A DNA stretch of 64,000 bases, taken from contig CALXCD010000001.1 in the NCBI GenBank assembly GCA_944386715.1, positions 8,141 to 72,140 of the forward strand. The letters run 5' to 3'. Under the pieces are notes generated by a model. It was not told the origin of the DNA, did not search any database, and saw nothing but the letters and a program-made list of their open reading frames with translations. Of this stretch, positions 33,901-51,267 are shown in pieces (position 1 is the first letter of the stretch; each line of letters begins with the position of its first letter). The translations under genes and the position numbers were made by a program. The stretch comes from an uncultured Clostridia bacterium (lineage in GTDB: Bacteria > Bacillota > Clostridia > TANB77 > CAG-508).

Positions 33901-36900
33901 TATTTGATACGTTTTTCCTGTTGCTCCATTAATTGGTGTTCCTCCACTTGTTGAATTACTTGTATTAGAATACCATTGATAACTTAAAGTTGCATCTCCT
34001 GGATTGATACTAGTTTCTGCTGTTAATGTTGAACCATATTGGTTTGTTCCTGTTATCTTTACACTTCCCGTAATAGTTGCATTTGTAATAGTAAATGCTT
34101 TTGTTGTATTGGTTAATGTATAGTTAGATGCTTTTCCTCTTCCTCCTGTTACACTTGTTATACTTGCTATTGAGGTATAACTTCCTACATTTGTTCCTGT
34201 TGTTCTTGTTAAGTTAATGGTTTCTCCACTTACTCCACTTGTTGCTACTACAGTTGGTGCTTGTTCTTTTCCGTTATATACGAAACTTGTTGTCTCTCCC
34301 CATGTTACTGCTACTGATTTTGCATTAATTTTCCAACTTAAAGATACATTTCCTGTACTTCCATCTGACCATTGATAATTGCTACTATCTTTTAAGCTTA
34401 CGGTTGCTGTATAATTTCCTGCATCTGTTCCTGTATTTCCACTCACATTCATCGTACTTGAATTATATCCACTTAAACTTAATGTTTGAGTTGCTCCATT
34501 GTAAGTATAATTTCCTGTTGCAGTTGGTTTATTTAAGTTTATCTTAGTTACAGTAGCACTTCCGTTATTCGTACCATCTGTAATATCACTAAATGTTGCA
34601 TTTGCATAATTAGTTTTCTTAGCTGTTACCACTACATAAATATATTTTCCTACTAGTCCACTACCTATTTGATACGTTTTTCCTGTTGCTCCATTAATTG
34701 GTGTTCCTCCACTTGTTGAATTACTTGTATTAGAATACCATTGATAACTTAAAGTTGCATCTCCTGGATTGACACTAGTTTGAGCTGTTAATGTTGAACC
34801 ATATCGGTTTGTTCCTGTTATTTTAACACTTCCTGTAATCGTTGCATTTGTAATATTAAATGCTTTTGTTGCATTTGTTAATGTATAGTTAGAAGTTTTT
34901 CCTCTTCCTCCTGTTACATTCGTAATACTTGCTGTAGATGTATAACTTCCTACATCAATCTCTGTTGTTCTTGTAATATTAATGGTTTCTCCACTAACAC
35001 CACTTTCCGCACTTACTGTTGGTGCTTGTTCTTTTCCATTATAAACAAAACTTGTTGTATCTCCCCATATTACAGCCACTTCTTTTGCATTAATCTTCCA
35101 GCTTAAAGTCACATTAGATGTAGTTCCATCTGACCATTGATAGTTGCCACTATCTTTTAGTGTTACAGTTGCTGTATAATTTCCTGCATCAGTTCCTGTA
35201 TTTCCACTTACTGTCATATTTCCTGCATCAAATCCATTCAAAGTTAATGTTTGATTAGTTCCATTATAAGTATAATTTCCTGTTGCTGTTGGCTTTTGTA
35301 TACTTATTTTCATAACAGTTGCACTTCCGTTATTAGTTGGGTCTGTAATGTCACTAAATGTTACTTCATTATAATTGTCTTTTTTAGCTGTTACTACTAC
35401 ATAAATATATTTTCCTACTAATCCATCCCCTATTGTATAATCCTTTCTGTTTGCTCCATCAATTGGTGTTCCTCCATTTGTTGAATTAGTTGTATTAGAA
35501 TACCATTGATAAGTTAAAGTAGCATCTTCTGGATTTACATTAGTTTGGGCTGTCAAGGTTGAACCATATTGGTTGGTTCCTGTAATTGTTACACTTCCTG
35601 TAATTGTTGCATTTGTAATATTAAATGCTTTTGTTGTATTAGTTAGTATATAGTTAGCTGTCTTTTCTCTTCCTCCTGTTACACTTTCTAACTTAGCAGT
35701 TGAAGTATAACTTCCTACTTCTGTCTCTGTCGTTCTTGTCATATTAAGAGTTTCGCCATTAACACCACTTTCAGCACTTACTGTTGGTGCTTGTTCTTTT
35801 CCATTATAGACAAAACTTGTTGTTGTTCCCCATACTACTGCTACTTCTTTTGGATTAATTCTCCAGCTCAAAGTCACATTTGATGTAGTTCCATCTGACC
35901 ATTGATAGTTTTCACTATCTTTCAATGTTACAATTGCTGTGTAATCTCCTGCATCTATTCCAGTATTTCCACTAACATTCATTTTTTCTGCATCAAGTCC
36001 CTTTAAAGTTAATGTCTGAGTAGTTCCGTTATAAGTATAACTTCCTTCTGCTGTTGGTTTTTGTACATTTATCTTCATAACAGTTGCACTTCCGTTATTG
36101 GTTGGGTCTGTAATGTCACTAAAGCTTGCATTTCCATAGTTTGGTTTTTTCGCTGTTACTACTACATAAATATATTTTCCTGCTAATCCGCTTCCTACAG
36201 TATAATCTTTTTTATTCGCTCCATCAATTGGTGTTCCTCCACTAGCAACATTATTGCTACTAGAATACCATTGATAAGTTAAAGTTGCATCACTTGGATT
36301 TACTGTTGTTTCTGCTGTTAAAGTAGAACCGTATTGGTTTGTTCCTGTTATTTTCACACTTCCTGTGATAACTTGATTTGCTATACTAAATTCTTTTGTA
36401 GTTCCAATTAAAGTATAGTTAGAAACTTTTTCTCTTCCTCCTGTTACACTTTCCAATTTAGCAGTTGATGTGTAATTACCTACATTAGTTTCTGTCGTTC
36501 TAGTAATATTAAGTGTTTCACCTTCTACACCACTTTCGGCACTTGCTGTTGGTGCTTGTGGGTGTCCATTATATACAAAACTTGTTGTTTCTCCCCATAT
36601 TACTGGTATTTGTTTTGGATTTATTTTCCAACTTAGAGTCACATTAGCTATAGTTCCATCTGACCATTGATAGTTACTACTATCTTTTAATGTTACAGTT
36701 GCTGTATAATCTCCTGCATCAATTCCAGTATCTCCACTTATATTCATAACATTTGCATCATAACCATTTAAAGTTATTTTTTGATTTGTACCATTATAAC
36801 TATAAGTTCCAGAAACTGTTGGTTTTTCCAAGTTAGCTTTCATAACAGTAGCACTTTCGTTAGTATCACTATCTGTAATATCACTAAAGCTTACTTCACC

Positions 36901-39900
36901 ATAATTTGTCTTTTTCGCTGTTACCACTACATAAATGTATTTTCCTATTAAGCCATCTCCTACTGTATAATCTTTTTTATTCGCTCCATCAATTGGTGTT
37001 CCTCCTGTTGTACTTTCTGTTGTATTAGAATACCATTGATAGGTTAAAGTAGCATCTTCTGGGTTTACTACCGTTTGAGCTGTTAAAGTTGAACCGTATT
37101 GATTTGTTCCTATTATTGTTACATTTCCTACTATTTTATCATTTGTAATAGTAAATTCTTTTGTATTATTTGTTAAGGTATAATTAGAAACTTTTCCTCT
37201 TCCTCCTGTTACACTCTCAATACTTGCTACTGATGTATGTGTTCCTACATCTTTTGCCGTTGTTCTTACTACATTAATAACTTCTCCATTTACACCACTA
37301 GAAGCCTTTACTGTTGGAGCTTGTTCTTTTCCGTTATACACAAAGCTTGTGGTTATTCCCCATACAGCCTCTATACTTTTTGTATTAATTTTCCAGTCTA
37401 AAGTTAGCTCTGTCACGGTTCCATCTGACCATTGATAATTCTCACTATCTTTTAAGGATATTATTGCAGTATAATCTCCTGCATCTATTCCTGTATTTCC
37501 ACTTACATTCATAGTTGCTTGATCGAATTTATTTAAAGTTGCCGTTTGGTTTGTTCCGTTATATGTATAAGTTCCTGTAAGTGTTGGTTTTTCAACACTT
37601 ACTTTTATTACAGTTGCACTTTCGTTATTAGTTGGGTCTGTAATATCACTAAAGGTTGCCTCTCCATAATTAGGTTTTGTAGCTGTCACTTGTACATAAA
37701 TGTATTTTCCAATCAATCCCTTTCCTACTACATAATCTTTTTCGTTTGCCCCTTCAATTGGTGTTCCTTCTGTTGTGCTTTCTGTTGTATTAAAGTACCA
37801 TTGATAGGTTAAAGTAGCATCTTCTGGACTTACTACAGTTTGAGCTGTTAAAGTTGAACCATATTGATTTTTTCCTGTTATTTTAACATTTCCTGCTATT
37901 TTATCATTTGTAATAGTAAATTCTTTTGTTGTATTTGTTAAGGTATAGTTAGTTGTCTTTCCTCTTCCTCCTGTTACACTTTCAAGACTTGCTGTTGATG
38001 TATAGTTTCCTACAGTAATTGCTGTTGTTCTTGTAATATTAAGGTTTTCTCCATCTACTCCACTTTCTGCAGTTGCTGTTGGTGCTTGTTCTTTTCCATT
38101 ATAAACAAAGTTTGTCACATCTCCCCAAATTACCGCTATCGTTTTTGGATTAATTTTCCATGTAATTGTTTTTGCTTCTGTTGTTCCATCTTCCCATGTA
38201 TAATTTTCTTCTGGTGTTGCCGTTGCTGTATAAGTTCCTGCATCTATTGCTTCTATTGTTCCTGTTAATATAACATGGTTCCCATTAATACCTTTTTGAT
38301 TTGCACCATTATATATTTTTTCTTCCTCTGCTACTGCTGTTGCTGTTAGCGATTTTTGTACAGTTATTGTTTTGGTGATACTTGCCTCTTTTACTGTTTC
38401 TGTCCTTGCCATAATAGCTGTGATTTCTGAAGCTCCACCCACTGCTACTGGTGTTAATGTTCCTGTACTAGCATCTACTGTCAAATAGGTTGGATTAGAA
38501 GATTGGTAAGTAATTGCTCCTGCTGTTCCTCCTTCTCCACTCACCTTTACTGTTGCTTTTTTACTTGTATCACCATAGTATACAGTATCTGGTGTTGTAT
38601 TTTCCCATTCTAGTGTTCTAGTATATTTTTGTACGGTTATTGTTACTTCCTTACTTGTCTCTTTATAGTTATCGTTTCCTGCATCTGTTACTGTAACTAC
38701 TATTGTTTTATCTCCATCATCATTTATTGAGTTAGTTCCTGCTGTTAATGTATTTCCTTCTATTTTACTTCCTTGTGTTGTTTGATTTTTAATGCTATAA
38801 GTTACATTTCCTTTTGCATTACTTACTAATGTTGATAAATCTACTTTTTCTCCTACTTTAACTGTTTTACTTGTTACTGTCATTGGACTTTCTAATTTTG
38901 TTACTTCAAAACTATTGCTTACTTTTACTTCTTCTGCTCTATTTCCTGCTATATCTGTTACTCTTGTCCATAAGTAATAAGTTCCAGCTTTACAATCTTC
39001 CTTACTTACTGTTTCTCCATTTTCAAATGTCTTCCACTCTTCTTCTTTTGGTTGTTCGTCTTTACTTGTTGACCATGCATATTCTAATTTGTTTAATCCT
39101 GAACCTCCTTCATCTGCTGCTGTTAAAGTTGTTTTTATTGTTGCCTCTCCACTATCTGGCATTACCGTATTTCCCCCATTTGGAGTCAATGTTACAGTTG
39201 GTTTTATCTTATCAATATTACTTATTGTTATTTCTTTCGTTATTTCTTTACCTGATTCATCTTCTACTGTTACTGTTATAGTTTGATTATTTGTTTTTAT
39301 GATGACTTCTGTTTCATCTTTTATTTCGTAATCTATTCCTTCTGTTCCTGTTACTGTTATAGTTTTATCTCCTGTTATTCTATCATCATATTCTATTTTT
39401 ACTGTTACATCTTGGTTTGTCCAGTCTTTTGGATTTTGTGTTAATATGATTAAATTCTCTGTACTTGGTTTTACACTAAATTCTTTACTTACCTCAATTG
39501 CTTCATTTCCTGCTACATCTGTTATTCTTGTCCATAAATAATAACTTCCTTCTTCACAATCTTTTTTACTTACTGTTTGTTCATTTGTTAATGGTTCCCA
39601 TTCTTGTTCTGTTGGTCTTGTTGTATTTGAATTACTCCATGCATATTGTCGTGTATTTAATCCTGAACCTCCTTCATCTTTTGCTGTTACTTTCACTTCT
39701 ATTGTTCCATCTTCTGCTGATTGTTCAGTTGATGTATTAATTAATGTTTTTCCACAGTTTGTTCCCATAGAACATCCATAACCATTTATATCATAGTAAG
39801 TCGAATAACTTGCATGACTATCACATGTTACTGTTCCCCATTCTTGCCCACACTCATCACATTTCATCCAAACATTTTTAGTGGCTGGATTATTACAACC

Positions 39901-40596
39901 TACTACAACACATCCTGAACTTCCAGAATAAGATGTAATTCTATTTCCTCTTAATGTTCCTGAACATGTTTTCCTCTCCTCACAAGTTCCAGCACTAGTA
40001 CTATAATAACCTGAATGTGTTGGGCAATGATAATGCTCTTCTTTAAATGTAGCCTCACATACACTACAATAATACCCTGCTGTTTCAACAAAAAATTCTC
40101 CACCATTTGGATTTAATGTTACTGTTGGTTTTATTTTATCTATTCTTGTAATATCTGCCTTAGCACTCATATCTTTATATTCTGAGATTATTGTACAATT
40201 TTTTCCAATGATAAATTCCTGCTCATATTTTTTCTTAACACCATCAATTGTATAATATCTTTCATCTTCTGGAACTGAAGCCGGAAAAGTAATTTCTACT
40301 TTCAAATCCTGATTTGTCCATTGTTCTATTGGATAAACCTCCCCTGAAGATGCAAAATACAAAGCAATATGAATATTTCCATTTACTAAATCATTATATT
40401 CCTTTTCCATTTCCTTTTCATTACTGCTTTGTTCATAATGTTTTTGTATTGTTTTAACTTGTCTATTTTGTTCTGATACACTATTTACAGTATTGACATA
40501 AATTGCATAAGCAATAATTATGAAAAAAAGTATAGCTATTAAAACAAATAAAGTAATAGAACCTCTTTCTTTTCCATGATTTTTGAATTTACTCAT
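30985..40596 (-). CDS. Giant (3204-aa) repetitive surface adhesin: N-terminal hydrophobic anchor/prepilin-like segment, Cys/His-rich module, Ig-like modules, about 8 tandem 255-aa Y(N/D)G MBG-like repeat units
   Basis: Start set at the ATG at 40596, preceded by AGGAGAG. N-terminus MSKFKNHGKERG|SITLFVLIAILFFIIIAYAI. Repeat unit contains SFVYNGKEQAPT, QYGSTLTAQT and QWYSNT...KYIYVVVTAKK. The ORF-track N-terminal extension has no RBS. Confidence 0.8.
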   Translation of the reverse strand: MSKFKNHGKERGSITLFVLIAILFFIIIAYAIYVNTVNSVSEQNRQVKTIQKHYEQSSNEKEMEKEYNDLVNGNIHIALYFASSGEVYPIEQWTNQDLKVEITFPASVPEDERYYTIDGVKKKYEQEFIIGKNCTIISEYKDMSAKADITRIDKIKPTVTLNPNGGEFFVETAGYYCSVCEATFKEEHYHCPTHSGYYSTSAGTCEERKTCSGTLRGNRITSYSGSSGCVVVGCNNPATKNVWMKCDECGQEWGTVTCDSHASYSTYYDINGYGCSMGTNCGKTLINTSTEQSAEDGTIEVKVTAKDEGGSGLNTRQYAWSNSNTTRPTEQEWEPLTNEQTVSKKDCEEGSYYLWTRITDVAGNEAIEVSKEFSVKPSTENLIILTQNPKDWTNQDVTVKIEYDDRITGDKTITVTGTEGIDYEIKDETEVIIKTNNQTITVTVEDESGKEITKEITISNIDKIKPTVTLTPNGGNTVMPDSGEATIKTTLTAADEGGSGLNKLEYAWSTSKDEQPKEEEWKTFENGETVSKEDCKAGTYYLWTRVTDIAGNRAEEVKVSNSFEVTKLESPMTVTSKTVKVGEKVDLSTLVSNAKGNVTYSIKNQTTQGSKIEGNTLTAGTNSINDDGDKTIVVTVTDAGNDNYKETSKEVTITVQKYTRTLEWENTTPDTVYYGDTSKKATVKVSGEGGTAGAITYQSSNPTYLTVDASTGTLTPVAVGGASEITAIMARTETVKEASITKTITVQKSLTATAVAEEEKIYNGANQKGINGNHVILTGTIEAIDAGTYTATATPEENYTWEDGTTEAKTITWKINPKTIAVIWGDVTNFVYNGKEQAPTATAESGVDGENLNITRTTAITVGNYTSTASLESVTGGRGKTTNYTLTNTTKEFTITNDKIAGNVKITGKNQYGSTLTAQTVVSPEDATLTYQWYFNTTESTTEGTPIEGANEKDYVVGKGLIGKYIYVQVTATKPNYGEATFSDITDPTNNESATVIKVSVEKPTLTGTYTYNGTNQTATLNKFDQATMNVSGNTGIDAGDYTAIISLKDSENYQWSDGTVTELTLDWKINTKSIEAVWGITTSFVYNGKEQAPTVKASSGVNGEVINVVRTTAKDVGTHTSVASIESVTGGRGKVSNYTLTNNTKEFTITNDKIVGNVTIIGTNQYGSTLTAQTVVNPEDATLTYQWYSNTTESTTGGTPIDGANKKDYTVGDGLIGKYIYVVVTAKKTNYGEVSFSDITDSDTNESATVMKANLEKPTVSGTYSYNGTNQKITLNGYDANVMNISGDTGIDAGDYTATVTLKDSSNYQWSDGTIANVTLSWKINPKQIPVIWGETTSFVYNGHPQAPTASAESGVEGETLNITRTTETNVGNYTSTAKLESVTGGREKVSNYTLIGTTKEFSIANQVITGSVKITGTNQYGSTLTAETTVNPSDATLTYQWYSSSNNVASGGTPIDGANKKDYTVGSGLAGKYIYVVVTAKKPNYGNASFSDITDPTNNGSATVMKINVQKPTAEGSYTYNGTTQTLTLKGLDAEKMNVSGNTGIDAGDYTAIVTLKDSENYQWSDGTTSNVTLSWRINPKEVAVVWGTTTSFVYNGKEQAPTVSAESGVNGETLNMTRTTETEVGSYTSTAKLESVTGGREKTANYILTNTTKAFNITNATITGSVTITGTNQYGSTLTAQTNVNPEDATLTYQWYSNTTNSTNGGTPIDGANRKDYTIGDGLVGKYIYVVVTAKKDNYNEVTFSDITDPTNNGSATVMKISIQKPTATGNYTYNGTNQTLTLNGFDAGNMTVSGNTGTDAGNYTATVTLKDSGNYQWSDGTTSNVTLSWKINAKEVAVIWGDTTSFVYNGKEQAPTVSAESGVSGETINITRTTEIDVGSYTSTASITNVTGGRGKTSNYTLTNATKAFNITNATITGSVKITGTNRYGSTLTAQTSVNPGDATLSYQWYSNTSNSTSGGTPINGATGKTYQIGSGLVGKYIYVVVTAKKTNYANATFSDITDGTNNGSATVTKINLNKPTATGNYTYNGATQTLSLSGYNSSTMNVSGNTGTDAGNYTATVSLKDSSNYQWSDGSTGNVSLSWKINAKSVAVTWGETTSFVYNGKEQAPTVVATSGVSGETINLTRTTGTNVGSYTSIASITSVTGGRGKASNYTLTNTTKAFTITNATITGSVKITGTNQYGSTLTAETSINPGDATLSYQWYSNTSNSTSGGTPINGATGKTYQIGSGLVGKYIYVVVTAKKANYTNATFSDITDSTNNGSATVTKINVAKPTVSGSYTYNGASQTLSLSGYNSSTMNVSGNTGTDAGNYTATVTLKDSSNYQWSDGTTSGVSLGWKINPKQISVTWGETTSFVYNGKAQAPTVVATSGVSGETINLTRTTGTNVGSYTSTASIESVTGGRGKASNYTLTNTTKAFNITNATITGSVTITGTNQYGSTLTAQTNVNPGDATLSYQWYSNTYNSTSGGTPISGATGKTYTIGNGLVGKYIYVVVTAKKTNYANATFKDITDSTNNGSATVTKINVAKPTASGTYTYNGNTQSLNVSGYNSSTMNISGNTGTDAGNYTATVTLKDSGNYQWSDGSTSSINLSWRISPKSVSVTWGSTTFTYNGKAQGPTASASSGIYGETLNITRTTEIGAGTHTSTASISSVSGGRGKASNYTLTGNTKQFTIARAKTATASAANKTYNGATQTGVTGSQVTWSGTQSAIDAGTYTAKATPTSNYAWSDGTTGAKSISWTINKKSVSVTWGSTTTFTYNGSPQAPTASADSGISRETLNITRTTEVSAGTHTSTASIESVTGGRKKTSNYTLTNATKAFTINKKAIQKTSGDYIGDYDGNSHTITLVVNEPRNGCNIYYSTSSTLTSSNYSTSGTTSKPSRSSAGTTTVYWYIHSTNGNYSDVSGSNTITINDVEPPETADFVKYDVAYTDVYYPEYKYSTTNGWRLLSYTDNQDGTYSNVKLISTGIPAKVAVDMLGSQLNNDWWVTDALGQQELEEALEWPSDWFSYAGDNSLAVSAGLYSNLGDIEFEYGEIQGKERYNKGSYISITNGSNVYDYYYPFMLKGNSLFKNGNVKLNTVTLTNINKARYNIDLSSTDTIQTFEDETGIYRLDQLKNVEGMSNYVYDSSRYLLATPLISDWDPDAVDYVEANGEIFSGTGVTTIFPEGDGIRPVITINSDRVIFNKSADGKYYTMEY
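32560..38350. repeat. Tandem array of about 8 near-identical repeats of about 765 nt inside the giant adhesin gene
   Basis: The landmark string CCTCCTGTTACACTTTC(T/C)A..CTTGCTGTTGA recurs at about 32611, 33381, 34146, 34911, 35675, 36441, 37203, 37965. Confidence 0.85.
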
Positions 40597-40912
40597 TTTA
40601 CATTCTCTCCTATAAATATTTTTATGCTTTAACAATTCTAATTTAACAAAGCAAAATAAATATTTCAATGCTTTAATTTGGTAAAACCTATCTCCCTTTA
40701 TCAAAGCACTTACGGATTTCGTATTTCGTTTATCTTATTAGAAAAAATTAATTTTATTTTACATTTTTGTAATATTGCTGTAATTTATGCACAAAAAAGC
40801 CTTAAATATTCGATAAATGTCTTTTTTGCAAAAATGTAAAAAAATTTTTCTTGATTTTGCGAGTTTCTTTTGATATATTAATTTTAATTTATAGAGAGGA
40901 AAAATGTTATAA

Positions 40913-41458
40913 AAAAACAAGAAAATCATTATATCCGTAAGGATTGCTGTTATTGTTTTAATAGGATTTTTCATTTTTTTACTAATAAACAACCATAAAA
41001 ACAATACTTCTATAGACCAAAATATTTCCAATAATACTTCAACTGAAATAAATGAGATATCAACAGAGTCTGAATCTACGGTACCAACATTTACCCTAGA
41101 AAGTACACCAGATAATCCTATTGAAATGGACGGGGTAGAAGCCACTACTATCAAAATAAGTAATAATGCAGGAGATGTAAAAGTAGATACTATATTAAAA
41201 AACAATTCTGATGAAGATATACATGGGTTTTTTATCGAAATAAATTTACTAGATAAAGATAACAATATTATTACAACCCTTTCTGAAAATTCCGAAAAAA
41301 CTATAAAAGCTCATAGCGAACATGCCCTAACAAACTATATTACAGCATTAGATAACGCAGAAAATATAACAAATGCACAAATTGTAACAATGGAAAAAAA
41401 CAGTATTAAAAACATGTTAGAAAATAGGTTTCAAGATATAGAAATGATAAAAGAATAA
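40913..41458 (+). CDS. Membrane-anchored 180-aa protein with N-terminal signal-anchor; canonical ATG at 40904 is followed by an in-frame TAA at codon 3
   Basis: Strong RBS AGAGAGGA then ATG TTA TAA. The open frame resumes KNKKIIISVRIAVIVLIGFFIFLLINNHK... and runs to 41458. The first internal ATG is at 41126 (ORF-track entry). The antisense ORF 40759..41265 is low-complexity. Confidence 0.45.
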   Translation, partial: KNKKIIISVRIAVIVLIGFFIFLLINNHKNNTSIDQNISNNTSTEINEISTESESTVPTFTLESTPDNPIEMDGVEATTIKISNNAGDVKVDTILKNNSDEDIHGFFIEINLLDKDNNIITTLSENSEKTIKAHSEHALTNYITALDNAENITNAQIVTMEKNSIKNMLENRFQDIEMIKE

Positions 41459-41466
41459 TTAATACA

Positions 41467-41684
41467 TGAATCTGTCAAGGGGGATATTCCTTTTGGCAGA
41501 TTTCGTTATTTATCATAAAAACTAAAACTATATGAAAAAGTAGTTATCTATTCATAATTTGCAGACAAGACCCGGATTATTACACCCCAAGATTGCTTTT
41601 GTCAAAAAGTATGAATAGATAACTACTTTTTAAGTTATATATAAGTGAAATCTGCCAAAAGGAATATCCCCCTTGACAGATTTA
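41467..41684. mobile_element. MITE-like structured element, copy 2: perfect 35-bp outer IR (AATCTGTCAAGGGGGATATTCCTTTTGGCAGATTT / RC), perfect 22-bp inner IR, conserved core TTGCAGACAAGACCCGGATTATTACACCCCAAGATTGCTTTTGTCAAA
   Basis: Read directly. Fills the gap between the convergent stops of the 41458 gene and rpoC, so it may double as a bidirectional terminator. Confidence 0.6.
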
Positions 41685-41686
41685 CA

Positions 41687-44600
41687 TTATTCTATTATTC
41701 CAGAAACTTGTTCCAATTCTTCCTCTGTACTAATTTTTAAGTCTTGATATTTTTGCATTCCTGTTCCTGCTGGAATTAACTTACCAATAATAACATTTTC
41801 TTTTAATCCCACTAAATCATCAGTCTTACCTTTAATAGCTGCTTCTGTTAATACTCTTGTCGTTTCTTGGAAAGAAGCTGCTGACAAGAAACTATCTGTT
41901 GCAAGAGATGCTTTTGTAATACCAAGTAATACTCTCTTACCTGTAGCAGGACGTTTTCCTTCTTGTTTTGCTTGTTCATTTTTCTCTTCGAATTCATACA
42001 TATCTATTAAAGAACCTGGGAACATGTCTGTATCACCATTATCTTCTACTCTTACCTTTTTAAGCATTTGTCTACCAATTACTTCAATATGTTTATCATT
42101 GATATCAACACCTTGGTTACGATATACTTTTTGAACTTCTGAAATCAAGTATTCATAAACACCTTCTGGTCCTTTAATAGCTAATATTTCTGCTGGATTG
42201 ATAGAACCTTCAATTAAAGGCTCTCCTGCTTCTACCATATCTCCCTCTTTGACTTTCATCTTAGAACCAAATGGAATTGTATATGTTTTAGCATCATCTT
42301 TACTTGTAACAATAACTTCTTTCTTTTTCTTAGTTTCTTTAATTTTAACCTTACCATCTATTTCAGAAATAATAGCAAGTCCTTTTGGTTTTCTAGCTTC
42401 AAATAACTCTTCAACCCTTGGAAGACCTTGTGTAATATCTGCAACACCAGCAACACCACCAGAGTGAATAGTTCTCATTGTAAGCTGTGTACCGGGTTCA
42501 CCAATAGATTGTGCAGCAATGATACCAATCGCTTCTCCAATGGATACCAAATCTCTTCTTGCAAGTCCCATACCATAACATTTTTGACATACACCATGTT
42601 TTGAACGACATCCTAATACAGAACGAACTTTTAATTTTTCTATACCTGCTGCTACTATTTTCTCTGCAATAGCTTCTGTAATCATAGTATTGGTATCTAC
42701 AATTAATTCTTTTGTTTCTGGATGATATACATCTTCTACTACAAATCTTCCTAATAATCTTTCTTGCATTTTTTCAATAATTTGATTTCCATCTTTAATG
42801 TCATAAATAATAATACCATCATCTGTACCACAATCATGCTCTCTAACAATAATGTCTTGTGAAACATCTACTAATCTTCTTGTTAGATATCCTGAGTCAG
42901 CTGTTCTTAAAGCTGTATCAGAAAGTCCTTTACGAGCTCCATGGGCAGAAATGAAATATTCTAAGGCATCTAGACCTTCTGCAAAAGATGATTTAATTGG
43001 AATTTCTACTGCCTTACCAGTAGTACTTGCCATTAAACCACGCATACCTGCAATTTGTCTTAATTGGTTCATATTACCACGGGCTCCAGATTTAACCATC
43101 ATATAAATTGGGTTTAATTCATCAAAATTATCTTCCATGGCATTACTTACTTCTTTGGTAGTAGCTTCCCATACATTAATAACAGCATTATATCTTTCAC
43201 TATCTGTAATAAGACCTCTTGCATATTGTTTTCTAATATTTTCTACTTTGCTATCAGCTTCTTCTAATAATGCTTTTTTCGCTTCTGGCACTTGCACATC
43301 ACTCATAGAGAAAGTAATACCTGCTAAAGTAGAATACTTAAATCCTAATGCTTTAATATAATCAATTACCTCTGCAGACTCTGATAATCCATGAATTCTA
43401 ATAACACTTTCAATAATATTACCCATAGATTTTTTCATAACAGGGAAATTAATCTCATATTGGAAAGGATCTTTCTCTCTATCAATAAATCCTAAATCTT
43501 GTGGAATTCCTTGATTAAAGATAATTCTACCAACACTAGTTTCAATTTTTTGAGATTTCATCTCTCCATTTATTTCTTTTGTAATTCTAACATAAATTTT
43601 TGCATGAATTTCTACTTCATGATTTTCGAAAGCCATGATTGCTTCATCTGGGTCTTTGAAATATTTACCTTCCCCTTTTTCTCCATCTAATACCATTGTT
43701 AAATAATAACTTCCTAAAATCATATCTAGTCTAGGAACTGCTACTGGTCTACCATCTTGTGGTTTTAACAAGTTATTGGTAGATAGCATTAAATATCTAG
43801 ATTCTGCCTGTGCTTCTGGTGATAATGGTAAATGTACTGCCATTTGGTCACCATCGAAGTCTGCATTAAATGCCTCACAAACTAATGGGTGAAGTTTTAT
43901 TGCTCTACCTTCTACCAATACTGGTTCAAAGCTTTGTATACCTAATCTATGTAAAGTAGGAGCACGGTTTAGCATAACAGGATGGTCTTTAATAACTTCT
44001 TCCAAAATTCCCCATACTTCTGGTTTTAATCTTTCTACCATTCTTTTTGCGTTTTTAATATTTTGCGCAATACCTCTGCCTACTAATTCTCTCATGACAA
44101 ATGGTTTAAACAACTCTACTGCCATTTCTTTTGGAAGTCCACATTGATAAATCTTAAGTTCTGGTCCTACTACGATAACAGAACGTCCAGAATAATCAAC
44201 ACGTTTTCCAAGTAAGTTTTGACGGAAACGACCTTGTTTTCCTTTTAGCATATCAGATAAAGATTTTAATGGTCTATTTCCAGCACCAGTTACAGGTCTT
44301 CCACGTCTTCCATTATCAATCAAAGCATCTACAGATTCTTGTAACATTCTTTTTTCATTTCTTACAATAATTTCTGGTGCTCCTAATTCTAATAATCTTT
44401 TTAAACGATTATTTCTGTTAATAACTCTTCTATATAAATCATTTAAATCAGAAGTTGCAAATCTACCACCATCTAATTGAACCATTGGTCTTAATTCTGG
44501 TGGAATAACAGGAACTACCTGCATTACCATCCATTCTGGTCTATTTCCAGAAATTCTAAAAGATTCTACTGTATCTAATCTTTTTACAAGTTTTACCTTT

Positions 44601-45208
44601 TTTTGTTCACTTGCTCCCTCTAATTCTTTTTTGATAGAATCAGATAACTTATCTAAATCAACTTCTTCTAACAACTCTCTTAAAGCTTCTGCTCCCATTT
44701 TTGCTTTAAAAGAACCTCTTCCATATTTTTCTTCTGCCTCGTGATATTCTTTTTCATTCAATACTTGGCATTTTTCTAATCCTGTATCACCTTTATCCAC
44801 AACAATATAAGATGCAAAATAAATAACTTTTTCTAAATTTCTTGGTGAAATATCCAAAATCAAAGCAATTCTACTTGGGATTCCTTTAAAATACCAAATA
44901 TGTGCAACAGGTGCAGCAAGTTCGATATGTCCCATTCTCTCACGTCTTACCTTAGATTTCGTTACCTCAACACCACAACGGTCACAGACGATTCCTTTAT
45001 ATCTTACTCTTTTATATTTACCACAATGACATTCCCAGTCTTTTGTTGGTCCAAATATTCTTTCACAAAATAAACCATCTTTTTCTGGTTTTAAAGTTCT
45101 ATAATTGATAGTCTCTGGTTTTTTTACCTCACCTTTTGACCACTCTCTTACCTTCTCATCTGATGCGATTCCTATTTTTAACTTATTAAAAATATCTAAT
45201 TCGTCCAA
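41687..45208 (-). CDS. rpoC: DNA-directed RNA polymerase subunit beta-prime
   Basis: 1173-aa product with zinc-binding [21 protein letters not shown] and catalytic [12 protein letters not shown] start preceded by GAAGGGGGA. Confidence 0.95.
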
Positions 45209-45245
45209 TTTTTTTCCCCCTTCGGTTAATTTGGTTATGGCTATT

Positions 45246-45298
45246 GGGGGACTGTCCCTCGATTGCCAAAAATGGTTACTTTTGGGACAGGTCCCCTA
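45246..45298 (-). promoter_or_regulatory. GC-rich 12-bp stem-loop (GGGGAC(C)TGTCCC ... GGGACAGTCCCC) in the rpoB-rpoC spacer
   Basis: Stands out in a 30%-GC background. Lies 40-90 nt upstream of the rpoC start. A candidate processing or attenuation structure. Confidence 0.4.
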
Positions 45299-45412
45299 TT
45301 ACTTCAAAACAACTTCTAGGGCTATCCACTGCTCGAACAATTCCTTCTGGTCGCCTTTTCATTTTTTGGAGTATATGACTAGAAAATCTTATCATTTCCC
45401 AGTTTTTTATCA

Positions 45413-45907
45413 TTACACTTCTCTTTCTTCTTCCTTATCTGTCTTTTCTTCTAACATTCCTTGTGTCCAAAATACTTTTAGCCAGGTAGCATATCTGTCT
45501 CTATTTCTTTCATCCTGCTGTGTTAAATGTTCCAATATAGATTCTTCCGTAATTTCCTTATTTTGCTGTTTCATTTGTCCCATTGTTTCCTTGATTTTTT
45601 GCATCGCACGATTTCTTAAATGTATCGCTTCTATTTGTTCTCTTTCCACATGATTTCTATCTACTATGGCAACATTATCTACATAAGTTAATATTTTACT
45701 TAATCTTAGTTTTGCTTCGCTAACAGCTTGATGTTTTAAACCCAAATATGGCAAACTCTCTATACCTAAATTATTTACAATTTCATCAAAATTAACAAAA
45801 GCTCCATTTGGCAATTTTCCAACCGTATTACATATCCCTTTTACCAAAGTATTTCTTATTGCTTCTCTTGTATTAATTTCATATTTGGGAATCTCTAATC
45901 TACTCAT
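45413..45907 (-). CDS. Hypothetical 164-aa protein encoded between rpoB and rpoC (helical, Glu/Lys-rich C-terminus)
   Basis: Intact ORF starting 11 nt after the rpoB stop with RBS AAGAGGAAAA. 204-nt spacer before rpoC. Composition matches the host genome. No recognisable motif. Confidence 0.6.
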   Translation of the reverse strand: MSRLEIPKYEINTREAIRNTLVKGICNTVGKLPNGAFVNFDEIVNNLGIESLPYLGLKHQAVSEAKLRLSKILTYVDNVAIVDRNHVEREQIEAIHLRNRAMQKIKETMGQMKQQNKEITEESILEHLTQQDERNRDRYATWLKVFWTQGMLEEKTDKEEEREV

Positions 45908-45918
45908 GTTTTTTCCTC

Positions 45919-48900
45919 TTATTCTATGATGTCATTTTCATCATCTAGATTATCGTTTGCTAAATCATTATCAAATAATAATTCATCACCCTCATCATCT
46001 AAATCCTGAAACAATTCGTCATCTCCATCATCATAATCATCTGTTTCATCTAGTAATACATCATCTTCTGTATCTTCTCCATAGCCATCTAAATCTTCGT
46101 CTGCTACAATTTCTTCTTCTGTTAATAATTTTTTATCTTTTTCAGGATCGTATTCAATTCCTTCTTCAATATTTTCTTTTAATTCTAATTCTTGATTATC
46201 TCCTGAATATAATCTAACATCTAATCCTAAAGATTGTAATTCTTTTACTAAAACTTTAAAGCTTTCAGGAACTCCTGGCTCTGGAACATTTTCACCTTTT
46301 ACAATAGCTTCATAGGTTTTTACTCTTCCCACAACATCATCTGATTTAACAGTCAACATTTCTTGTAATGTATAAGCTGCACCATAAGCTTCTAATGCCC
46401 AAACTTCCATCTCTCCAAAACGTTGTCCACCAAATTGTGCTTTTCCTCCTAAAGGTTGTTGTGTTACTAATGAATATGGTCCTGTTGAACGAGCATGTAT
46501 TTTGTCATCTACTAAGTGGTGTAGTTTTAACATATACATAACCCCTACTGTAATAGGTTTATCAAATGGGTCTCCTGTTCTTCCATCATATAAAATAGTT
46601 TTTCCATCTTTACTCATTCCGGCTTTTTCTAGTATTTCCTCTACATCTTTTTGTGTTGCTCCATCAAATACTGGTGTTGAAACTTTCCATCCTAATGCTT
46701 TTGCAGCACCTCCTAAATGTACTTCTAAAACTTGCCCTAAGTTCATACGAGAAGGTACACCTAGTGGATTTAATAAAATGTCAATTGGTGTTCCATCTGG
46801 CATAAATGGCATATCTTCTTCTGGTAATACTCTTGAAATAACACCCTTATTACCATGACGTCCTGCCATCTTATCACCAACAGATATCTTTCTCTTTGTT
46901 GCAATATAACATCTTATAATTTGATTTACACCAGGTCCTAATTCATCAGAATTATCTCTTGTAAAGATTTTAACATCTACTATGGTTCCTGCTTCTCCAT
47001 GTGGTACTCTTAAAGAAGTATCTCTTACTTCTCTTGCTTTTTCTCCGAAAATAGCACGTAATAATCTTTCTTCAGCTGTTAATTCTGTTTCTCCTTTTGG
47101 TGTAACCTTACCAACTAAAATATCTCCTGGTCTTACTTCTGCACCAATACGAATAATTCCATTTTCGTCTAAGTCTTTTAAAGAATCATCACCCACATTT
47201 GGAATATCTCTTGTAATTTCTTCTGCTCCTAATTTAGTATCACGACATTCACAATCATATTCTTCAATGTGAATAGAAGTAAATACATCTTCTTTTACTA
47301 GTCTTTCATTAATTAAAATAGCATCTTCATAGTTATAACCTTCCCAAGTAGAAAATGCAACTAATACATTTTTACCAAGTGCCATTTCTCCATTTTGTGT
47401 AGATGGTCCATCTGCAATTGCTTCTCCTTTTTTTACTTTTTCTCCGGCTTTTACAATTGGTTTTTGATTAATACATGTCCCACCATTTGTTCTCTTGAAT
47501 TTACGCAATTTATGTACTATTGTTTTTCCGCTTTTATATTTTACAGTAATTGCATCACCTGTAACTTTTTCTATTACTCCATCTTCTTCTGCTAAAATTA
47601 AAATTCCTGAGTCTTTTGCTGCTCTATATTCAATTCCTGTTCCTACAATTGGAGATTCTGTAATCATTAATGGAACTGCTTGACGTTGCATGTTAGCTCC
47701 CATTAAAGCTCTTTTTGCATCATCATGCTCTAAGAATGGTATCATTGCTGCTGCAATAGATACTAATTGTTTTGGTGATACATCTACATATTGTACTTTA
47801 TCTCTATCTACTTCTATTACTTCATTTCTGTATCTAACTCTAATTCTTTCATTTTTTAGACATCCTTTTTCATCAATTGGTTCTGAAGCTTGAGCTATAA
47901 TATAATTATCTTCTACATCTGCACTCATGTATTCTACAATATCTGTTAATTGATGTGTTTTTGAATCAATCTTTCTATATGGTGTTTCAATAAATCCATA
48001 TTCATTAATAATTGTAAAAGATGATAATGCAGAAATTAATCCGATATTTGGTCCTTCTGGAGATTCAATTGGACATAATCTACCATAATGAGTATAGTGA
48101 ACATCACGAACCTCAAATCCTGCTCTTTCTCTTGTTAATCCACCAGGTCCTAAAGCAGAAATTCTTCTTTTATGTGTCAACTCTGAAAGTGGATTTGTTT
48201 GATCCATAAATTGTGATAATTGTGAACTTCCAAAGAATTCTCTTATGGCTGATGTAATTGGCTTTGTATTAATTAAAGTTTGTGGTGTAATAACATCTAA
48301 ATCTTGAATAGTCATTCTTTCACGAACAACTCTTTCTAATCTTGTTAAACCAATTCTAAATTGATTTTGCAATAATTCTCCAACACAACGGATTCTACGA
48401 TTTGCTAAATGGTCAATATCATCTATTTTTCCAAGTCCATGAGAAAGATTTAATAAGTAATTAATAGATGCAATCATATCTTCTGTTGTAATATGCTTTG
48501 GAACTAATTCATCATATCTTTCTTGTAATACTTTTACTAAATCTTTTTCTTCTGTATTATCTATGATATTTTTCAATACATTGTAATTTACTAATTCTTT
48601 AAAATGTAATTTGCTTAAATCTACATTTGGTAAAACAGCATGAATATTTACGGTACTATTACCAATAACTCTTACTTTTCTTTCGCCAACCATAACATCT
48701 ACTATGTTAATACCCGCATTTTGAATGGCTTCTGCAAGATCTTCTTGAATTACTTCTCCTGCTTGTACCAAAACTTCTCCTGTTTCAGCATCCATAATAT
48801 CTTCAGCAGCAATTTTATCTTGGATTCTAGTAGCTAAATTTAATTTTTGATTAAATTTATATCTTCCTACTTTTGCTAAATCATATCTTCTATTATCATA

Positions 48901-49689
48901 GAACAATCCATTAAATAAATTTCTAGCAGCATCTACTGTTGGAAGTTCTCCTGGTCTTAACTTTTTATAAATTTCAATTAATGCTTCTTCTTGGTCTTTA
49001 ATGGTATCTTTTGCAATAGTAGCTGTTAGCATTTCTTCATCACCAAATAGTTCTCTTATTTGGTCATCTGAAACAACACCAATAGCACGAAGTAAAGTGG
49101 TAACAGGTAATTTTCTTGTCCTATCTACACGAACATAAAAAACATCATTACCATCAGTTTCATATTCAAGCCAAGCACCACGAAGTGGCATAACAGTGGA
49201 TGTATATGTTTTCTTTCCAGTCTTGGTATCAAATTCTTCTGCATAATAACAACCTGGTGAACGAACTAACTGACTAACTACAACTCTTTCTGCTCCGTTA
49301 ATGATAAATGTTCCACTATCTGTCATTAACGGAAAATCTCCTAAGTAAATTTCTTGCTCTTTAATTTCTCCTGTTTCACGATTGATTAATCTAACCTTTA
49401 CGTGTAATCTAGTAGAATAAGTAGCATCTCTTTCTTTTGCTTCTTCTACTGTATATTTTGTCTTATCCTCCATGTAATAATCGAAAAATTCAAGAACTAA
49501 ATTTCCAGAATAGTCTTCTATTGGTGAAATATCTCTTAATACTTCTCCCAATCCTTCCTCTACAAACCAGTCATATGAATCTTTTTGAACTTTAATTAGG
49601 TTTGGCATTTCAATATAATCCCCAACCTTTGCGAAATCCTTACGAGATGCCTTCTCGTATTTGACATCTTTTAATTCCAAAAAAATCAC
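45919..49689 (-). CDS. rpoB: DNA-directed RNA polymerase subunit beta
   Basis: 1256-aa product with conserved rifampicin cluster and C-terminal acidic tail. Start is GTG at 49689 or TTG at 49680. Confidence 0.95.
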
Positions 49690-50056
49690 CCCTATAAAAT
49701 ATTAAGCAGAAAAAAATCAATCTTTCGATTGTTTATATATGGAAAAAAAGTCCCTCTTAAATACTTTCCTCTTAACTAAGTTTTTAATTTGTCTGCTCCC
49801 ACAAATTAAATTTGCTTAGGGATTTCAGCATTTAATTCCTCTTTTCTTCTTCATAAACGAAAATAATAATGAAATAATTTCTTTGCAAAATTAACCCTTT
49901 TGTAAAACAAACGGCAATAAAAGAGCTGTTGAAAATCCTCTGTTTTTCAACTGGCTCTAAGAGTTATTTAATTTCACATTTTTTCTTTTCTTTATTTTTA
50001 TCACCCTTATGTTTTTCTTTTTTTCATTTGGGTAAATTTTCCTTGCAAATATCTTT

Positions 50057-50095
50057 ATTATAATATCATATTTTTCTTACGGATGTCAAGGTTTT
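50057..50095 (-). promoter_or_regulatory. Candidate rpoB promoter (TTGACA, about 18-nt spacer, TATTAT) at the head of a roughly 400-nt leader
   Basis: Reverse strand reads ccTTGACAtccgtaagaaaaatatgaTATTATaat. rpoB is not preceded by rplL here, so it needs its own promoter. Confidence 0.4.
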
Positions 50096-50114
50096 GAGCG
50101 AAAATTCATCAAAA

Positions 50115-50150
50115 AAATTTGGCATCCATACCTGGAACCATTGCCAAATT
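50115..50150. repeat. Degenerate half-copy of the GGTTCC...GGAACC palindrome (TTTGGCATCCATACCTGGAACC) inside a short AAATTTGGCA / TGCCAAATTT hairpin
   Basis: 21/22 match to the right arm of the 8168 and 26783 elements. Lies just past the stop of the 50152 gene. Confidence 0.6.
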
Positions 50151-50151
50151 T

Positions 50152-51267
50152 CTAACAAGTTTTATATCTTATATAATCTTCTAACAATATTTTAATAACA
50201 GCAGTAACAGGAACCGCTAAAAACATACCTAAAATTCCAAAATAAGCTCCTCCAACTGTAATAGAAAAAAGAACAAATAGTGGGCTTATTTTTAATGATT
50301 GGCCTACAATTTTAGGGTTAATGATATTTGCATCTATTTGTTGTAAAATTATAACAACAATCAACATCCAAATTGTTTGACTAATACCACCTGTAATCAA
50401 AGTAATAATACCAGCAATACCAACTGCTATAATGGCTCCAATATATGGAATCATATTAAATAATCCAATTAAAAATCCTAACAATGGTGCATATTTTATT
50501 CCCATTATTGTCATTGCTATTGTTACCAAAATCCCAACTATAACTGCATCTAAAAATTGACTAACAATAAATTTAAAGAAAATTTGATTAGAATTATCAA
50601 AATATTTATCTAAATTTCGATATACTCTTTCTTTTAATATTGCACTCATAAATTTTTTTAGAAAACGAATTATTTGTGTTCTTTCTGATAATATATAAAT
50701 AGATACAACAACAGCTACAAATATATCAAAAATACCTGTTACAGCTTGAATAGCACTTCCTATATATGCCAATATTTTATCTACCTGAAAATATTGTTTA
50801 ATGTCTATATTTTGAATTCCCTGAATAGCATCTTTTACTACTTCTCCTTTTAAGAAAGAGTCTTCTGGTAAATCATTGTATTTTTGTATTGCAAGTTCAT
50901 AATAGCTTTGAATATTATTAATTAAATCTTCTACACTTTCTAACACAACAGGTAGAATTACATTAATTAAAATAACTAATAATAATACCACTATAAGATA
51001 AACTGTCATAATACTCAATGTTCTAGCTTTTTTTCTAACAAATTTAATTTTAGACTTTAGAAATGTTTCTTCGATTTTTTTACATGGCATATATAGCAAA
51101 TAAGCAATAAATATACCAGCAAAAAAAGGAGCTATTATATCTAAAAATTTATGTACTACTCCCATAACATCTTGAAAATTATCAAAAAGTTTATAAACAA
51201 TAATAATAGCTACTCCTAATAAAAACCAATATACCCATTTCTTCCAATGATTTTTCATTTCTTCCAT
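50152..51267 (-). CDS. AI-2E family transporter (UPF0118 / YtvI-like permease)
   Basis: About 8 predicted TM helices with the characteristic C-terminal GILGMFLAVPVTAVIKIL region. Confidence 0.7.
   Translation of the reverse strand: MEEMKNHWKKWVYWFLLGVAIIIVYKLFDNFQDVMGVVHKFLDIIAPFFAGIFIAYLLYMPCKKIEETFLKSKIKFVRKKARTLSIMTVYLIVVLLLVILINVILPVVLESVEDLINNIQSYYELAIQKYNDLPEDSFLKGEVVKDAIQGIQNIDIKQYFQVDKILAYIGSAIQAVTGIFDIFVAVVVSIYILSERTQIIRFLKKFMSAILKERVYRNLDKYFDNSNQIFFKFIVSQFLDAVIVGILVTIAMTIMGIKYAPLLGFLIGLFNMIPYIGAIIAVGIAGIITLITGGISQTIWMLIVVIILQQIDANIINPKIVGQSLKISPLFVLFSITVGGAYFGILGMFLAVPVTAVIKILLEDYIRYKTC

Follow-up and report, generated by a model that had tools for sequence, protein, structure and literature searches.

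A small orphan gene in a variable slot between rpoB and rpoC, upstream of a conserved structured RNA, in uncultured gut Clostridia

Few bacterial genes are as conserved and as tightly linked as rpoB and rpoC. Here we describe the junction between them in a stretch of 64,000 nucleotides (nt) of DNA from an uncultured Clostridia bacterium (contig CALXCD010000001.1; the whole stretch is referred to below as the window), which carries a gene of 164 codons, designated X, followed by a 204-nt spacer. X is a real protein-coding gene of a tiny orphan family found only at the rpoB-rpoC junction; it is dispensable, and the slot that it occupies is variable in content among related genomes. The spacer holds a conserved structured RNA of the rpoC leader that is absent from Rfam and is independent of X. 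We favor, at a probability of about 0.55, the view that X is a genuine but dispensable and fast-evolving accessory gene, housed in a 'cargo slot' of variable content that separates the rpoB stop codon from the conserved rpoC-leader RNA. An earlier note, made by reading this DNA alone, had drawn attention to X; the observation is correct, and is more interesting than a single odd gene.

Organization of the junction and coding status of X

The order of rpoB, X, spacer and rpoC is as the earlier note described it, with all elements on the minus strand. The features, in window coordinates, are as follows.

45919 to 49689, minus strand: rpoB, RNA polymerase beta subunit, 1256 amino acids (aa), GTG start (list of open reading frames, ORFs; Pfam RNA_pol_Rpb2 domains on the orthologue in the related locus L001)
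45914 to 45918, minus strand: Shine-Dalgarno GAGGA for X, 6 nt before the ATG (read from the sequence)
45413 to 45907, minus strand: gene X, ATG start, 164 aa, protein beginning MSRLEIPKYEINTREAIRNTLVKGICNTVGK
45209 to 45412, minus strand: 204-nt spacer between X and rpoC
45374 to 45412, minus strand: short AT-rich linker after the X stop (alignment of related junctions)
45300 to 45373, minus strand: structured RNA element (alignment of 64 distinct sequences, RNAalifold, covariance model)
45246 to 45296, minus strand: GC-rich stem-loop of 12 pairs and one bulge, with a 25-nt loop that includes a small CCA/UGG hairpin (folding)
45216 to 45220, minus strand: rpoC Shine-Dalgarno GGGGG, in AAGGGGGAAAAAAA-TTG (read from the sequence)
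41687 to 45208, minus strand: rpoC, RNA polymerase beta-prime subunit, 1173 aa, TTG start (ORF list; Pfam RNA_pol_Rpb1 domains on the L001 orthologue)

The 11-nt gap GAGGAAAAAAC that follows the rpoB TAA stop carries the GAGGA Shine-Dalgarno of X. The TTG start of rpoC holds up on comparison, as relatives use GTG at the aligned codon, and the rpoC Shine-Dalgarno is kept as GGGGG, GGGAG or GGAGG in all related leaders.

X has the host-like composition reported earlier (GC 0.29–0.33, the same low level as its neighbours). With GC at ~30%, stops make up roughly 8% of random codons, and 164 open codons would be expected by chance with a probability of ~1e-6 (estimated from composition); we conclude that the ORF is not a chance one. 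Three relatives are present among 5.8 billion protein clusters, at 98, 77 and 68% identity and all exactly 164 aa, and the length is thus constant across four lineages. Pairwise ratios of non-synonymous to synonymous change (dN/dS) are 0.18–0.35 for X, with dS up to 0.6, which indicates purifying but relaxed selection and supports the earlier description of X as an intact, lineage-specific gene. The dN/dS of rpoB and rpoC in the same genome pair is 0.012, and non-synonymous change is ~70 times faster in X than in RpoC. Between the window and L001 the dS of X is 0.59, or 2–3 times that of the flanks (rpoB 0.18, rpoC 0.26); weaker codon bias in X could account for this, or recombination may have left X with alleles of greater age than the flanking genes.

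The family to which X belongs is small. An exhaustive search of 1.84 billion representative proteins with a hidden Markov model (HMM) gave eight matches, fragments included, and a broader family profile run against 5.8 billion proteins again gave eight clusters. A first scan of genome contigs with X peptides gave no match, and there are no family copies in collections of plasmids, phages or viral contigs. The lack of a recognizable motif remarked on earlier holds at the level of sequence, with no match in Pfam, NCBIfam, PHROGs, PADLOC or PDB sequences; an X profile searched against the PDB sequences picked up designed helical proteins only, at E > 0.02. The gene order rpoB-X-rpoC, which the earlier note proposed to look for in related Clostridia, recurs in every relative with a readable context: the upstream gene is always rpoB (with an acidic tail ending ...DIIE), and the downstream gene is rpoC wherever the contig is long enough. 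The rpoB-adjacent members of the family include proteins only 23–28% identical to X.

The slot between rpoB and rpoC is variable

Related junctions were retrieved using a loose pattern taken from the RNA loop in the spacer core (described below) and scanned over 185,579 species-representative genomes. The scan returned 78 loci, ~62 of which are from gut metagenome-assembled genomes (MAGs) with titles such as "uncultured Clostridia", "Clostridium sp. CAG:343", "Clostridium sp. 27_14" and "Eubacteriales". The motif lies between rpoB and rpoC in 61 of these ~62 loci; in the 62nd (L065), neither rpoB nor rpoC is found in the 8 kb retrieved and the covariance model gives no match, and this locus probably matched by chance. 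The other 16 of the 78 loci are in unrelated phyla and are chance matches at the loop positions, with the stems absent.

Across ~58 species the distance from the rpoB stop codon to the motif ranges from 18 to 1651 nt; it is under 100 nt in 27 species, 100–300 nt in four, and over 300 nt in 27. X is present in only three of the ~58 species-level genomes that share this junction, plus the window lineage. It is missing from the closest genome (L082), whose RpoB and RpoC are 99.5% and 97.8% identical to those of the window. The L082 junction is 216 nt long and becomes homologous to the window again ~35 nt 5' of the motif, near TTTT(C)TAGTCATATACTCC; the difference represents either loss of X in L082 or gain in the window lineage.

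The other slots are empty or contain cargo, which is co-oriented with rpoBC in every case. The cargo classes and their loci are as follows.

MATFVER family, second orphan family of the slot: L062, L034, L027, L033, L075, L043, L084, L030, L025, L071; L090–L099
MazF/PemK-like toxin (PF02452) with a 55-aa N-terminal extension: L016, L048, L081, L056
MNT nucleotidyltransferase and/or HepT (PF01909, PF01934): L020, L050, L025, L053, L071, L085

The MATFVER proteins are ~102–115 aa long and start with the sequence for which we name them (MATFVERxDSESxYTK...). They are found in ten species, all ten metagenomic contexts place them between rpoB and rpoC, and their stop codon usually falls within a conserved box just 5' of the RNA hairpin. 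We compared them with the N-terminal domain of X, and the in-register HMM matches are weak (E 0.008–0.4) with an hhalign probability of 6%, such that homology between the two is unsupported. Several copies of the MazF-like gene have decayed to fragments (L023, L044, L043, L030, L071), and this cargo was not found in plasmids. A few other unknown proteins are also among the inserts. In a tree of rpoC the X family is limited to one subclade, in which X-bearing and empty slots are intermixed; MazF-like and MATFVER cargo dominate another subclade, and MNT/HepT genes are scattered over several places.

A further type of insert is an imperfect palindrome of ~125 nt (TAAACGAATAAAAAGCAGCATCTTGCAC...) located directly after the rpoB stop codon in L016 (as the first ~125 nt of the insert), L066, L068 and L076; it is the sole insert in three loci. 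It looks like a small element of the miniature inverted-repeat transposable element (MITE) kind that splits a short conserved post-rpoB sequence. This palindrome is known from these few loci and not from the window junction.

A conserved structured RNA in the rpoC leader

The spacer is better conserved than X itself, with DNA identity of 92–96% among X-bearing relatives compared with 78–83% for X, and its core is recognizable even beside the most divergent X genes. An alignment of 64 distinct sequences shows an element of roughly 75 nt in which 13 + 8 pairs make up a long stem (P1) and five more an apical hairpin (P2), with conserved internal-loop bases reading GCGAC-nn-GA-n-GGA on one side and GG-n-UAG on the other. 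Over the 64 sequences 92.3% of cells are paired, compared with 33–50% when the partners are slid. There are compensatory changes in 15 of 26 pairs, and the observed value was reached by none of 500 shuffles; RNAalifold independently predicts the same helices. The G-U pairs are conserved on the sense strand only, and we therefore regard the element as RNA rather than DNA. It is present with or without X, and is equally conserved in ~55 species that lack X.

The covariance model finds a single copy of the element in the 64-kb window (72 bits), with no further copies elsewhere in the window or in the 20-kb locus L001. No Rfam (15) entry matches the spacer at an E value of 10 or less, and no family reaches Rfam gathering scores in the whole 64-kb window (no riboswitch, rRNA or tRNA model matches). 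Species with a minimal junction illustrate how the element is placed: the hairpin begins inside the rpoB stop codon itself (..ATA ATT GAA TAA-ATTTC..), and rpoB's own end corresponds to a box, AAYTRAATA. In the window the 3' end of the linker (CTAGTCATA; 45382 to 45374) aligns with this box. In insert-bearing species the ATTGAATAA box persists immediately 5' of P1 as non-coding remnant sequence, within which many cargo ORFs end.

Three other roles for parts of the spacer were considered and set aside. A small ORF in the spacer lacks a start codon and its frame is not conserved in other lineages. The 3' arm of P1 is not credible as an anti-Shine-Dalgarno for rpoC, as shuffled controls give the same duplex energies (mean z 0.2 over 48 species). 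The box upstream of P1 is not a promoter -10 sequence but a relic of the ancestral rpoB 3' end (..ATT GAA TAA), and the scan detected promoter-like sites at background level only.

Between the RNA element and the rpoC Shine-Dalgarno is a stretch of leader that varies from ~30 to ~290 nt among species and that often contains nested GGGAC...GUCCC palindromes. The GC-rich stem-loop that the earlier note saw in the spacer is real; it folds at about -24.6 kcal/mol by pairing of GGGGACCUGUCCC (45296 to 45284) with GGGACAGUCCCC (45258 to 45247). It is kept in L004, L001 and L082 at -22.7 to -23.8 kcal/mol, and shows a compensatory change from UGUCCC/GGGACA to UGUUUCC/GGGAACA. Because L082 has no X, we assign the stem-loop to the rpoC leader and not to X, and it would appear to be a lineage-specific addition to that leader. 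It does not resemble an intrinsic terminator for X, as it has no U-tract, is followed by CCAAUAGCCAUAACC, and is also present without X. The GGGAC-N-GUCCC units do not represent a dispersed repeat, being confined to the rpoC leader within the 64-kb window. In eight loci (L030, L048, L056, L067, L068, L027, L043 and L084) the leaders are 200–350 nt long and are expanded by long nested inverted repeats of GGGAC...GUCCC units; the GC hairpin of the window is a small version of the same theme.

Predicted structure of X

The earlier note suggested placing X by profile and structure-prediction searches; the profile searches point to no named family, and structure prediction yields a winged helix in the model. 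AlphaFold2 models of X have a predicted local distance difference test score (pLDDT) of 74, which increases to 81.6 with a 10-sequence alignment. The model has a winged helix at residues ~10–85 (three helices followed by a beta-hairpin wing), a long helix at 87–114, a helix pair at 121–148 in which the core motif of the family lies (ITxExIL..L...D.RN...Y.TW), and a disordered acidic tail at 149–164. Residues 87–148 are confidently helical, and the acidic tail of 14–16 residues has a net charge of -4. The family alignment shows that the conserved core of the family is the C-terminal module (ITKEEIL.YL...D.RN..KYRTWI..LC..G plus the acidic end), and the number of winged-helix domains per member is zero, one or two.

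Foldseek searches of PDB and BFVD gave nothing at E < 0.01. The top weak matches are GntR/FadR-type regulators with a winged helix plus helical domain (E about 0.02–0.06, TM-scores 0.2–0.3), and the best structural match is LP1413 (PDB 6btc), encoded by the mobile element SCCmec. Beyond the winged-helix fold itself, X does not fall into any of the named classes that we considered. As a delta subunit of RNA polymerase it would be expected to carry a HARE-HTH domain (PF05066), and no sequence signature of this domain is present, nor is there a long, strongly acidic and disordered C-terminal half. There is no Pfam match, and thus neither a GntR signature (PF00392) nor an FCD or UTRA domain; one member of the family has a GntR match at E 0.07, which is under threshold. 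Antitoxins of type II or VII have a cognate toxin beside them, and X is alone in the window slot; the MazF-like and HepT toxins in the slots of other species never adjoin an X-family gene. Finally, X does not have the appearance of an integron cassette: no repeat or palindrome boundary flanks it, and the conserved hairpin has sense-strand G-U pairs and stands at empty slots too. No integrase is found among the Pfam-annotated neighbours in L001 or the ORFs adjoining rpoBC in the window, whose ORFs were scanned in part.

Expression and possible roles

A scan of positions 44900–46300 identified no terminator sites, and promoter-like sites between rpoB, X and rpoC are at background level. Co-transcription of the three genes is therefore plausible, and X would be translated from a polycistronic rpoBC mRNA and be made whenever RNA polymerase is made. 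X may be a small nucleic-acid-binding protein, possibly dimeric by means of its long helix, and its role would be regulatory and accessory, not that of a core polymerase subunit. Turnover of the slot would occur by homologous recombination in the flanking rpoB and rpoC genes, which are 95–99% identical between species. The hairpin RNA, which ancestrally would have begun in the rpoB stop codon, may serve the expression of rpoC as a site of processing, stabilization or protein binding, and could buffer that expression against whatever sits upstream.

Several points weigh against this accessory-gene interpretation or limit its reach. Co-transcription is suggested solely by the lack of signals in a simple scan, and the one hint of recombination is the elevated dS of X (0.59 compared with 0.18–0.26 in the flanks), which codon bias could explain. 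The winged-helix domain is not markedly basic, with a net charge of +1, and DNA binding by X is consequently not assured; the C-terminal module that defines the family has no structural match. The retrieval pattern was derived from the RNA loop, such that relatives lacking the motif would be missed, and the invariance of the loop is in part by construction, with the stems lying outside of the pattern. Finally, the occurrence of two orphan families in this slot and nowhere else could mean that there is a functional tie to RNA polymerase and that these are not passive cargo.

That last point bears on the proposal of the earlier note, in which the position of X was taken to suggest a polymerase-associated factor stoichiometrically coupled to the beta subunit. 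In its fuller form X would be a lineage-specific factor akin to the delta subunit, made in step with beta and binding the polymerase, perhaps jointly with the acidic tail of RpoB. We consider this doubtful. The restriction of both the X and MATFVER families to the slot speaks for it, as do the tight placement of X behind rpoB with its own Shine-Dalgarno, a winged helix plus acidic C-terminus that loosely recalls delta, and a delta-like acidic RpoB extension throughout the lineage. The argument from position is weakened by the variability of the slot, though, with X missing from L082 and present in three of ~58 species, and with the slot elsewhere empty or holding MazF-like and MNT/HepT genes; where toxin-antitoxin genes can occupy the same place, position alone is no evidence. 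Most of the species whose RpoB and RpoC are near-identical do not have X, X has no HARE-HTH or other Pfam match, its acidic tail is only 14 aa (net -4), short members of the family have no winged helix, and X changes ~70 times faster than RpoC at non-synonymous sites while its supposed partner is nearly invariant. A broader proposal, in which the junction is a dedicated 'socket' for proteins directed at RNA polymerase, strikes us as unlikely: X and the MATFVER family would bind or protect the polymerase, perhaps with the RpoB acidic tail, and would evolve fast through conflict with phage or toxin factors. The hairpin RNA would then represent an insulator or processing element of a new class, holding rpoC expression steady whatever the slot contains.

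The toxin genes in sister slots raise the question of whether X is itself conflict or addiction cargo. On that view it could be an antitoxin-like regulator acting alone, be left over from a toxin-antitoxin or defence cassette, or act against phages or toxins, and its place within an essential operon would make it difficult to lose. The MazF-like toxin (PF02452) and MNT plus HepT pairs are found in those slots, X is fast-evolving, patchy and variable in domain number as is typical of conflict genes, and its best structural match comes from SCCmec. Nonetheless, the window slot holds a single ORF with no partner toxin, X has no PADLOC, PHROG, phage or plasmid match, no recombinase or repeat boundary surrounds it, and the family never occurs at other loci, unlike ordinary mobile toxin-antitoxin genes; we think it improbable that X is cargo of this kind. 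Still less probable is that X regulates rpoC directly by binding the adjacent RNA element or its DNA. X does have a nucleic-acid-binding fold, and the structured element next to it is highly conserved, but the RNA is just as conserved in the ~55 species without X, the closest relative included, and X diverges rapidly while the loop bases of the element stay fixed. As to whether X is a spurious ORF or a pseudogene decaying within an expanded AT-rich spacer, it is an orphan with no named homologues and is missing from the nearest genome. These observations are outweighed by the same length in four lineages, dN/dS below 0.35 while dS is about 0.5–0.6, a confidently predicted fold, a correctly spaced Shine-Dalgarno and the ~1e-6 chance of such an ORF, and this explanation is already effectively refuted.

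Other features of the region

RpoB has a C-terminal extension of ~100 aa (45922–46230, minus strand) in which 46 residues are aspartate or glutamate, with a net charge of -41. This acidic tail is conserved at 51–80% identity across ~60 related species (loci L013–L086), and is reminiscent of the acidic C-terminal half of the delta subunit.

The genes surrounding rpoBC also differ from the usual ones. Upstream (window 49690–51267, and in L001) are an AI-2E-family transporter and an Exo_endo_phos gene in place of the usual rplJL, and downstream (window 40705–41686, and in L001) a small unknown ORF followed by a giant protein in place of rpsL/rpsG. The latter is encoded by an ORF of 3239 aa (window 30985–40704, minus strand) with a prepilin-like hydrophobic N-terminus, as judged by eye, and around twelve long repeats in tandem, each of roughly 200 aa; its L001 orthologue has no solid Pfam match. 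An antisense ORF of 182 aa (window 45105–45653, plus strand) extends across the start of rpoC and the spacer into the end of X. As the L001 counterpart is only 44 aa, the ORF is not conserved there and is probably spurious.

Significance and relationship to known systems

A clade of uncultured gut Clostridia tolerates variable small genes, including toxin-antitoxin modules, between rpoB and rpoC, and the operon should be read differently as a result. The locus lends itself naturally to studying how insertions are buffered within an essential operon, and the covariation-supported hairpin is a candidate cis-element. Should the X or MATFVER proteins contact RNA polymerase, they would represent new transcription factors specific to a lineage that is not yet culturable; if they do not, the junction is a clean example of a recombination hotspot made by ultra-conserved flanks.

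Among known proteins, the delta subunit (RpoE) of the Bacillota has an acidic tail of roughly 70–80 aa. X differs from it in lacking the HARE-HTH signature, in having an acidic tail of 14 aa and an additional conserved helical C-module that is the real core of its family, and in being encoded inside rpoBC and missing from most close relatives. LP1413, the winged-helix nucleic-acid-binding protein of SCCmec, has only 9% sequence identity to X; at 79 residues it has no counterpart of the C-module, and its genomic context is unrelated. X shares the domain order of GntR/FadR-type regulators, an N-terminal winged helix followed by an all-helical C-domain, although its C-module is much smaller, at about 60 aa.

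At hotspots of horizontal transfer, accessory genes are exchanged by recombination in conserved core-gene flanks. The slot is similar in showing presence/absence and content variation at a fixed site between conserved core genes, with toxin-antitoxin modules among the cargo. It differs in lying inside an essential and normally uninterrupted operon, in having cargo that is all co-oriented and includes two families known from nowhere else, and in that recombination is here a proposal drawn from the pattern of variation. Structured elements of the rplKAJL-rpoBC region include the L10 leader and, in Escherichia coli, the RNase III site upstream of rpoB. The spacer element is likewise a conserved RNA structure between cistrons of an RNA polymerase operon, but it lies at the rpoB-rpoC junction and has no Rfam family match. 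In the collection of literature searched, nothing relevant was found on genes or structures between rpoB and rpoC. The orphan winged-helix protein, the cargo hotspot and the cis-acting RNA each belong to a known kind, and what is unprecedented is the place in which they occur.

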